A stretch of DNA of 64,000 nucleotides from Escherichia coli 042 (GTDB taxonomy: Bacteria > Pseudomonadota > Gammaproteobacteria > Enterobacterales > Enterobacteriaceae): the NCBI RefSeq assembly GCF_000027125.1, contig NC_017626.1. One strand, given 5' to 3'. This document shows, piece after piece, positions 31,601 to 34,600 of the stretch. The position numbers are program-made. Position 1 is the first letter of the stretch. Each line of letters starts with the position of its first letter.

Positions 31601-34600
31601 CAGGCGCGCCGTCGGTGGGGTTAAATCGAGTAATTTCTCCAGCGCCTTAGAAGAACGCTGACGCGCGCGCGCTTCCAGCATATGGCCGAGATTGATCAGA
31701 CCGATAATCATCGCGCTGGCTTCGTAATAAAGATGTCGCGCTTCCATCGGGAACCACTGCGGCCACAGGTTGACGCTCATCGAATAGAGCCACGCCACGC
31801 CCGTACCCAGCGCCACCAGCGTATCCATTGTCGCCGCGCCGTTCAGCAGGCTTTTCCATGCACTGCGGTAAAAATGCCCGCCGGCGAAAACCATTACCGC
31901 CAGGGTTATCAGGCCGATAACCAACCACAGGCTGCGGTTGTCGGCGGTGACCATCATGTTATCGCCGATCATCCCCCAGACCATCACCGGGATACCCACC
32001 GCCAGTGCGACAATCGCCTGCCAGCGGAAGCGCTTCATCGTAGCGACGGCGGTTTCTTGCTGGCGCTCGCGGCGTTTAGCGTCATCTTCAATCGCTTCCG
32101 CGCCGTAGCCCGCTTTTTCCACCGCCTGCACTAAATCTTGTGGGGAGGCACTGCCCATCACCAGCGCAGTACGCTCCGCCAGGTTTACCCGTGCCTGAGT
32201 GACGCCCGGTACGCTTTGCAACGCATTTTGTACGCGGGTGACACAGCTGGCGCAGCTCATGCCGCTCAGCAGCAACTGCTGGCTGTCATCGTCATCGGCG
32301 GTCGCTGCCGGAAGCGCCTCAGAAACCGCTGTCAGTGCTTCCGACGGGATTGATGACTCCGCCAGCGGTTTAGCCTTTGGGTGGCTTACAGATGCGTCAT
32401 AACCCGCTTGTTTGATGGTTTCGATCAGCTGTTCTGCACTGGCAGTCCCGGTAACGTGCGCTTCAGTGACAGACACATCCGCCTGCTCAACATCCGGCCG
32501 CTGTTCGAGACTTTCTTTCACGCGTTTAACGCAGTGACCGCAGGACAGGCCGTCCAGGGTCAGGTCGATAGTTTGTGACATAAAACACTCCTTTTAAGAC
32601 AGTTTTGACTGGCTGTGATAAAGGTTAAACCTTCCAGCAAGGGGAAGGTCAAGAAATTAATAAACCAGGCGGGTAAAAGTCCGTAAAGATTAAAAAATCG
32701 GCTCGATTTGCATCAGGATTAGACATTTATCTCTTTGTTTTCCTGTAGTTAAGTTGCGGGTGCTAAGTTAAATCAGGATGCCTGAAAATCGGCACCGGGG
32801 TGAGGAATTACCTCCCGCATCTATAAAAAGGAGTTAACAAAAGATGTTAGATGCAAACAAATTACAGCAGGCAGTGGATCAGGCTTACACCCAATTTCAC
32901 TCACTTAACGGCGGACAAAATGCCGACTACATTCCCTTTCTGGCGAATGTACCTGGTCAACTGGCAGCAGTGGCTATTGTGACCTGCGATGGCAACATCT
33001 ATCGCGCGGGTGATAGTGATTACCGCTTTGCGCTGGAATCCATCTCGAAAGTCTGTACGTTAGCCCTTGCGTTAGAAGATGTCGGCCCGCAGGCGGTACA
33101 GGACAAAGTTGGCGCTGACCCGACCGGATTGCCCTTTAACTCAGTTATCGCCTTAGAGTTGCATGGCGGCAAACCGCTGTCGCCACTGGTAAATGCTGGC
33201 GCTATTGCCACCACCAGCCTGATTAACGCTGAAAATGCCGAACAACGCTGGCAGCGAATTTTACATATCCAACAACAACTGGCTGGTGAGCAGGTAGCGC
33301 TCTCTGACGAAGTAAACCAGTCGGAACAAACAACCAACTTCCATAACCGGGCCATTGCCTGGCTGCTGTACTCCGCCGGATATCTCTATTGTGATGCAAT
33401 GGAAGCCTGTGACGTGTACACCCGTCAGTGCTCCACGCTCATCAATACTGTTGAACTGGCAACGCTTGGCGCGACGCTGGCGGCGGGTGGTGTGAATCCG
33501 CTGACTCATAAACGCGTTCTTCAGGCCGACAACGTGCCGTACATTCTGGCTGAAATGATGATGGAAGGGCTGTATGGTCGCTCCGGTGACTGGGCGTATC
33601 GCGTTGGTTTACCGGGCAAAAGCGGTGTAGGTGGCGGTATTCTGGCGGTCGTCCCTGGCGTGATGGGAATTGCCGCGTTCTCACCACCGCTGGACGAAGA
33701 AGGCAACAGTGTTCGCGGTCAAAAAATGGTGGCATCGGTCGCTAAGCAACTCGGCTATAACGTGTTTAAGGGCTGATCATGATGAACACGGAAGGTAATA
33801 ACGGTAACAAACCCCTCGGTCTATGGAACGTCGTTTCCATCGGCATTGGGGCAATGGTGGGGGCGGGGATCTTCGCGCTGCTGGGGCAGGCTGCGTTGCT
33901 AATGGAAGCCTCGACCTGGGTCGCCTTTGCTTTTGGCGGTATTGTGGCGATGTTTTCCGGTTATGCCTATGCGCGCCTGGGGGCGAGCTATCCCAGCAAT
34001 GGCGGTATTATCGACTTCTTTCGTCGCGGATTAGGCAACGGCGTCTTTTCGCTGGCACTCTCGTTATTGTACCTGTTGACGCTGGCGGTGAGCATCGCCA
34101 TGGTCGCCCGTGCTTTTGGCGCTTATGCCGTGCAGTTTTTGCATGAAGGCAGTCAGGAGGAGCACCTTATATTGCTCTACGCGTTGGGGATCATTGCGGT
34201 GATGACGCTTTTCAACTCCTTAAGCAACCATGCGGTAGGGCGGCTGGAAGTGATCCTCGTCGGCATTAAAATGATGATCCTGTTATTGCTGATCATTGCA
34301 GGTGTCTGGTCGCTGCAACCGGCGCATATTTCTGTCTCTGCGCCCCCCAGCTCCGGTGCGTTCTTCTCCTGTATCGGGATAACCTTCCTTGCCTATGCGG
34401 GCTTTGGCATGATGGCGAACGCAGCGGATAAAGTGAAAGATCCGCAGGTCATTATGCCACGGGCGTTTCTGGTGGCGATTGGCGTTACCACGTTGCTTTA
34501 TATCTCGCTGGCGCTGGTTTTGCTTAGCGATGTATCGGCATTAGAGTTAGAAAAATATGCCGATACCGCCGTAGCGCAGGCAGCTTCTCCGCTGCTCGGG

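Follow-up and report, generated by a model that had tools for sequence, protein, structure and literature searches.

A −1 frameshift site in copA of Escherichia coli 042: conservation of the slippery heptamer and a predicted downstream pseudoknot

Can one copper-pump gene also specify a small copper chaperone, and does the slippery-looking sequence in copA of Escherichia coli 042 serve this end or merely reflect the coding of a His-Pro-Lys stretch? We analyzed copA within a 64,000-nucleotide (nt) stretch of contig NC_017626.1 (hereafter the window, to which all coordinates refer), where the gene lies on the minus strand. The site is very probably the programmed −1 ribosomal frameshift cassette of E. 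coli copA, from which slipping ribosomes would release CopA(Z), a protein of 70 amino acids (aa). This finding is already known, and the copy in the window is the standard intact cassette. The site is significant because of its conservation in orthologues, the low synonymous diversity around it, a downstream pseudoknot and the folding energies of shuffled sequences.

The frameshift site and its conservation

Codons 67–70 of copA read CAC CCA AAG GCT (H67, 32383..32381; P68, 32380..32378; K69, 32377..32375; A70, 32374..32372), which a script confirmed exactly as a preliminary description of this DNA had given them; the interval 32370..32390 encloses both the heptamer and the −1 stop. The heptamer C_CCA_AAG occupies codons 67–69 in X_XXY_YYZ phase, at the end of the first metal-binding domain. 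When a −1 slip is simulated, G32375 is re-read as the first base of GGC and TAA follows immediately, giving a 70-aa product with a terminal glycine and the C-terminal sequence SHPKG. That this product would end after the first metal-binding domain, as had also been proposed, agrees with the Pfam match of its HMA domain to residues 8–62. CopA(Z) is thus a copper-binding HMA domain with a CxxC motif, whereas full-length CopA comprises two N-terminal HMA domains, an E1-E2_ATPase domain and a HAD hydrolase domain according to Pfam. The components of a canonical −1 frameshift signal are all present, namely a heptamer, a spacer within the 5–9 nt range and a stable downstream structure, here with stems of 10 and 9 base pairs (bp). 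C_CCA_AAG is listed with the heptamers most prone to shifting in E. coli (PMC5009743).

Two heptamers of the X_XXY_YYZ form occur in frame in copA, and only the one at codon 67 is followed by an immediate −1 stop; the other, AAAAAAC at codon 335, opens a −1 extension of 24 codons. The codon-67 site is built of codons that are in the minority in copA (CAC, 4 of 12; CCA, 7 of 35; AAG, 6 of 28; GCT, 7 of 120), and synonymous resampling of the His-Pro-Lys-Ala-Lys stretch recreates the heptamer with its stop in 0.4% of draws.

When one genome per bacterial species was scanned, 61 copA orthologues from Enterobacterales and 17 distant homologues were recovered. The heptamer is in phase in all 61 orthologues, as CCCAAAG in 39 and CCCAAAA in 22, and in every one the −1 frame stops exactly one codon past it (TGA in 39, TAA in 22). 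The zero-frame residues that overlap this stop vary (A, S, T, P, F or C, followed by E, K, D or N), and codon 70 is NNT and codon 71 begins with AA or GA throughout. Heptamer and −1 stop were found together in none of the 17 distant homologues, which come from alphaproteobacteria, Thioalkalivibrio, Halomonas and others.

Synonymous choice is restricted over the same interval. In a codon alignment of 57 sequences and about 700 codons, synonymous diversity is 0.16 across codons 67–92 and 0.51 elsewhere (Mann–Whitney p = 1e-7), and this segment ranks second for low diversity among 665 sliding segments, behind the one that lies one codon upstream. Around the heptamer, the codons of H67 (CAC, 39/39), P68 (CCA, 57/57), A70 (GCT, 26/26) and P72 (CCG, 57/57) are fixed. 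The same holds in the 3′ arm of the first predicted stem for T84 (ACA, 28/28) and A85 (GCG, 52/52), and in the 3′ arm of the second stem L90, P91 and A92 are mostly CTT (36/38), CCG (55/56) and GCA (40/46), respectively. Several of the fixed codons at the site are non-preferred ones, and synonymous choice is free in codons 86–89, which form loop 3, and in the flanks. Within the species, 5341 of 5422 complete E. coli genomes carry the 91-nt cassette at 100% identity, and the remainder are off by about a mismatch. Even the weakest E. coli match retains the entire cassette; in one example of a variant, the innermost part of the first stem has a synonymous G>U.

The predicted pseudoknot

The preliminary description had proposed folding the downstream mRNA in search of a stimulatory pseudoknot, and an H-type pseudoknot was indeed found, supported by covariation and by folding energy (Table 1). 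We infer its exact pairing scheme in this analysis. Positions are numbered with the first C of the heptamer as 1, so that subtracting a position from 32382 gives its window coordinate, and all of these coordinates were verified. Nine or ten of the ten pairs of stem 1 (S1) form in nearly all orthologues, with a G20×A50 mismatch in E. coli and compensatory changes at 14:56, 17:53, 18:52, 22:48 and 23:47. All nine pairs of stem 2 (S2), which also appears in the nested minimum-free-energy fold, form in Enterobacteriaceae; elsewhere a CCGGAA/UUCCGG core is kept, and seven of the nine pairs show two-sided changes.

Across an alignment of 58 sequences (A2), 89.4% of cells are standard pairs, versus 17–51% when the partners are slid, and 11 of 17 tested pairs show two-sided, compensatory changes. 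Column shuffles of this alignment reached any of five measures in 0 of 500 trials. An anchored count, in which the 1-nt junction is fixed by the choice of anchoring, adds the innermost S1 pairs, with 22:48 appearing as A-U, G-U or U-A and 23:47 as G-C or A-U. Compensation is clear in Pantoea (CCGUUG/CAACGG), in orthologue L063 (CCGCCG/CGGCGG) and in orthologue L038 (ACG.../...CGU). The spacer length is constant, with no insertions or deletions between heptamer and S1 in 58 of 58 aligned sequences. Most orthologues have a loop 1 of 13 or 16 nt and a loop 3 of 10 nt; loop 1 ranges overall from 4 to 34 nt, its length always leaving a remainder of 1 on division by 3.

The best H-type pseudoknot beginning 4–9 nt past the heptamer scores −27.9 kcal/mol, versus −7.7 ± 5.1 in dinucleotide shuffles, each energy being a crude sum of two hairpin evaluations; none of 500 such shuffles folds as well. 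Covariation, suppressed synonymous variation, shuffle energies and identity with K-12 together point to a stimulatory pseudoknot downstream of the heptamer. The copA pseudoknot stimulates −1 frameshifting in single-molecule assays (PMC6182138).

An S1 drawn by eye at an early stage (11–19 with 51–59) was dropped: its A11–13/U57–59 pairs are specific to E. coli, and pairs 21–23 with 47–49 are conserved and covary. In the crude H-type scan, just one other region of copA equals or outscores the frameshift pseudoknot (down to −37 kcal/mol; ~30990..31118, minus strand, copA nt ~1464–1594), and it has no slippery heptamer. In a search of Rfam release 15, nothing matched the copA site at the gathering threshold, and relaxing the cutoff to E = 10 brought up only noise; Rfam is without a family for the copA frameshift pseudoknot.

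Table 1. Features of the copA locus, with pseudoknot positions and window coordinates
Feature	Positions	Window coordinates	Strand	Remarks
copA coding sequence, zero frame		30077..32581	minus	From the list of open reading frames; 834 codons plus stop; 834-aa Cu(I)-exporting P1B-type ATPase
CopA(Z) frameshift open reading frame		32370..32581	minus	Simulated −1 slip; codons 1–69 in frame 0 (32581..32375); 70 aa
First metal-binding domain (HMA fold), residues 8–62		32396..32560	minus	Pfam PF00403, 52.1 bits, E = 8.4e-14
Cu(I)-binding C14-G-H-C17 (CGHC)		32542..32531	minus	Coordinates verified
Slippery heptamer C_CCA_AAG		32375..32381	minus	Last base of H67, then P68 and K69; X_XXY_YYZ phase
−1 frame codons GGC TAA		32370..32375	minus	One Gly added, then termination
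Spacer GCUAAA, 6 nt	8–13	32374..32369	minus	Heptamer to S1
S1 5′ arm CCGCUGGCGG	14–23	32368..32359	minus	Pairs with 32335..32326
Loop 1, 13 nt	24–36	32358..32346	minus	Sequence variable
S2 5′ arm GUCGGAAGC	37–45	32345..32337	minus	Pairs with 32315..32307
Junction A, 1 nt	46	32336	minus	Between the stems
S1 3′ arm CUGACAGCGG	47–56	32335..32326	minus
Loop 3, 10 nt	57–66	32325..32316	minus
S2 3′ arm GCUUCCGGC	67–75	32315..32307	minus
Probable copA promoter and CueR operator		32622..32652	minus	TTGACC, 19-bp spacer, TAACCT; read from sequence

Published work, mechanism and rival explanations

The RefSeq record of E. coli K-12 MG1655 carries, at the 5′ end of copA, a joined coding sequence of 212 nt in two pieces annotated as a soluble Cu(+) chaperone (YP_009518752.1). 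K-12 copA has the same heptamer at codons 67–69, the same GGC UAA ending and the same 70-aa product length as the window copy, and the two are identical in nucleotide sequence from about codon 39 to about codon 120, that is, ~90 nt upstream and ~150 nt downstream of the site. CopA(Z) of the window differs from that of K-12 solely by I38V, with residues 39–69 identical. The assertion in the preliminary description that the cassette is fully conserved here accordingly stands for the RNA signals, with this single replacement in the product. Further differences at the start of the gene are synonymous changes at L25 and R28 and an extra A in the 5′ untranslated region, just before the Shine–Dalgarno sequence (CTTAAAAGGAG vs CTTAAAGGAG).

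Over the whole gene, 91 of 2505 nt and 11 amino acids differ from K-12, unevenly: 5 nt in the first 600, none in nt 151–300, and 5–14 per 150 nt in much of the rest. The gene is present in 5422 of 5426 complete E. coli genomes, and the allele is rare, with a match of at least 99% in only 82 of the 5422. The annotated copA of E. coli BEC1-S17-ESBL-09 matches that of the window at 100% of its DNA, and the Prokaryotic Genome Annotation Pipeline annotation of an identical strain gives only the 834-aa CopA, omitting the chaperone coding sequence.

The E. coli copA frameshift was reportedly described by Meydan in 2017 (Mol Cell 65:207) and by Drees in 2017 (Mol Microbiol 106:635), the latter also with a short-transcript route. 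Its description for E. coli, which the preliminary account had taken as given, is borne out by the K-12 record and by Loughran et al. 2022, who judged it to have good support from ribosome profiling and independent confirmation while refuting the corresponding claim for human ATP7B (PMC9548414). Reviews give the product as 70 aa and name the slippery sequence, the pseudoknot and the nascent chain as stimulators (PMC7558416, PMC5009743, PMC6771820), and the frameshift reading of copA has further literature support (PMC10861913). We take the efficiency of the shift, the protection against copper by its product and the stimulation by the nascent chain from this literature. Accumulation of the short protein through frameshifting is likewise reported for K-12.

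The frameshift would proceed as follows. With peptidyl-tRNA(Pro) on CCA and Lys-tRNA on AAG, the mRNA entry channel would meet the H-type pseudoknot, whose first stem begins 6 nt downstream, and hindered translocation would let both tRNAs slip back by one base and pair with CCC and AAA instead. The slipped ribosome would then add Gly (GGC), stop at UAA and release the 70-aa CopA(Z), the first HMA domain with its CGHC motif, as a soluble Cu(I) chaperone for the pump. Ribosomes that stay in frame would unwind the pseudoknot and complete the 834-aa CopA ATPase, and the ratio of pump to chaperone made from one copper-induced mRNA would be set by RNA signals. Upstream, the stretch 32622..32652, probably the published PcopA/CueR site, is identical to K-12 and carries the spacer dyad ACCTTCC-N7-GGAAGGT; it would place both products under copper-induced expression. 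A sigma-70 promoter scan upstream of copA, restricted to spacers of 16–18 nt, gave no match, as expected because a MerR-type promoter has a 19-bp spacer.

Could the site instead be an accident of coding, a His-Pro-Lys stretch through which ribosomes read without making a functional short product? The heptamer by itself is unremarkable and within chance, with 5 copies of CCCAAAG on the two strands of the window together versus ~8 expected from base composition. Coincidence, however, does not account for the fixation of the minority codons CAC, CCA and GCT in every orthologue with those residues, for a −1 stop that is kept 61 times out of 61 despite changes in the overlapped amino acids, or for a site that always falls at an HMA domain boundary with a covarying pseudoknot at canonical spacing. 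It also conflicts with the product and the profiling drop-off recorded in the literature for E. coli (PMC9548414, PMC7558416, PMC5009743) and with the heptamer-dependent 70-aa product reported for K-12, whose cassette is identical. To judge from sequence comparison, conservation across orthologues settles the question of chance against coincidence, which we regard as highly improbable. Conceivably, RNA polymerase could change the frame by slipping on the run of C or of A. Productive transcriptional slippage needs homopolymer runs of ~7 or more, but the runs at this site are merely three C and three A. The tandem X_XXY_YYZ phase and a pseudoknot at 6 nt are moreover signatures of slippage by the ribosome, and so the polymerase route seems barely conceivable here, although it is a known bacterial alternative for making frameshifted products (PMC5009743). 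Conservation and run length thus exclude coincidence and transcriptional slippage.

The chaperone might still owe its origin chiefly to a shortened copA transcript or to proteolytic cleavage of CopA, with frameshifting in a minor part and the RNA structure acting as a 3′-end or stability element. Such an origin would suit the title of Drees et al. 2017 and the presence of a stable structure directly past the chaperone-coding part. In frame 0, however, a truncated mRNA that lacks the −1 stop would have no stop codon, and the conserved pairing of in-phase heptamer and −1 stop is sensible only under frameshifting. We found no intrinsic-terminator-like site in 32100..32580, and the shift is described in a review as highly efficient (PMC7558416). 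We consider it very improbable that this is the main source, and the short-transcript route and the frameshift complement rather than compete with each other.

Several points nevertheless weigh against reading the site as a programmed frameshift. The nested minimum-free-energy fold of the 102 nt past the heptamer is unremarkable (z = −1.19); nested folding misses the structural signal because pseudoknots are not representable in it, and the signal emerges only in a search that admits them. The same sequences served to derive the pairing, so the slid-partner control is somewhat favourable to it. Some of the constrained codons (CCG, CTG) are also preferred ones, so their fixation need not all reflect RNA structure. 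Finally, the product departs from that of K-12 by I38V. Among the sequence features of the copA site, we saw none that argues against frameshifting.

Related systems, neighboring features and significance

Sixteen of the 61 orthologues carry the cassette at codons 130–140, after two tandem HMA domains, with C_CCA_AAA as its heptamer, the −1 stop one codon later and the same pseudoknot as in E. coli copA. These orthologues (L036, L041, L043–L047, L049–L052, L054, L055 and L060–L062; heptamers at locus positions ~1884–1914, for example L054:1908–1914) come from Serratia, Yersinia, Photorhabdus, Xenorhabdus, Pectobacterium, Dickeya, Brenneria, Hafnia, Edwardsiella and Budvicia. Their predicted frameshift products are 139–141 aa long and end in ...PKN or ...PKI, and Pfam recognizes two HMA stretches in both examples checked, the Serratia and Yersinia products. 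Because the cassette sits after two HMA domains, a two-domain chaperone of ~140 aa is predicted, and its presence in every Enterobacterales genus sampled suggests that the cassette is old. It is possible, if short of probable, that the cassette is ancestral to Enterobacterales and that these genera release such a two-domain protein. A literature search for the two-domain variant returned nothing relevant, within a coverage that did not extend to the phylogenetic analysis of the primary paper. In L038 (Erwinia persicina CFBP8797), the zero frame of copA meets a stop (…TES*SQ…) a few codons past the frameshift site (L038:1713–1760), and S1 carries the compensated change ACGCUG.../...CAGCGU; this may be a pseudogenized pump that retains the chaperone part, or a sequencing error.

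The window also contains the dnaX −1 frameshift element (13607..13671, plus strand; Rfam RF00382, 96.8 bits), with its AGGGAG, A_AAA_AAG and stem-loop visible, so that this one window holds the two classic chromosomal −1 frameshift sites of E. coli, ~19 kb apart. Like copA, dnaX (gamma/tau) is a chromosomal, non-mobile gene with an X_XXA_AAG heptamer, a shift-prone Lys AAG codon, a downstream stimulatory RNA structure and a nearby −1 stop that yields a truncated functional protein. The dnaX signal consists of A_AAA_AAG with an upstream internal Shine–Dalgarno sequence, AGGGAG, and a simple stem-loop, whereas copA has C_CCA_AAG and a pseudoknot. The copA site is not an element of the dnaX type, having neither a match to RF00382 nor an evident Shine–Dalgarno-like sequence upstream. 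The nascent peptide, reported as an extra stimulator of the copA shift (PMC7558416), is another difference from dnaX.

CopA(Z) resembles the stand-alone CopZ/Atx1 proteins, such as those of Bacillus subtilis and Enterococcus hirae (copZ), in consisting of one soluble HMA domain, ~70 aa long, that has a CxxC Cu(I) site and serves a CopA-type pump. Stand-alone CopZ, however, has its own gene, usually in an operon with copA, whereas CopA(Z) is the first domain of the pump itself released by recoding. The −1 signals of viruses and insertion sequences (coronavirus 1a/1b, IS3 family) share with copA a heptamer, a ~6-nt spacer and an H-type pseudoknot with two stems of ~9–10 bp and a 1-nt junction. 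Their shifts usually extend into a long new frame to give a fusion, whereas that of copA terminates after one codon, and loop 1 of copA, unlike theirs, is long (13 nt) and protein-coding.

Between ybaP (28865..29659) and the end of copA (30077), the interval 29735..30070 holds ~330 bp of GC-rich DNA unrelated to that of K-12, which has ybaQ and three repetitive extragenic palindromic (REP) copies there that are missing from the window. Its core (~29783..29998) is a repeat that is dispersed and carries no annotation: 5,425 of 5,426 E. coli genomes contain it, at 17,497 places in total and with a median of 3 per genome. The repeat gives a sub-threshold Rfam match to the TwoAYGGAY RNA (RF01731; 29804..29943, plus strand; 31.5 bits against a gathering threshold of 43, E = 0.002); one of its hairpin loops reads CAUGGAUG and a second CAGGGAUG. 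A mechanically called open reading frame in this interval (29742..30017, minus strand) is probably spurious. The small RNA gene sroB (ChiX/MicM) lies at 28783..28866 on the plus strand (Rfam RF00368, 81.1 bits).

For the window itself, novelty is limited to allele-level differences from K-12, namely I38V and the extra A in the 5′ untranslated region. What our analysis adds is an independent comparative demonstration of the cassette, an explicit pairing scheme, and the recognition of gaps in Rfam and in annotation. The 58-sequence alignment and the pairing scheme could seed an Rfam model of the copA pseudoknot. The practical consequence concerns annotation: the chaperone coding sequence is present in the curated K-12 record and absent from automated annotation. 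To our knowledge, copA, dnaX and prfB are the only three well-characterized recoding events in non-mobile E. coli genes. In copA, the site lets one copper-induced mRNA yield both a membrane pump and a soluble copper chaperone.

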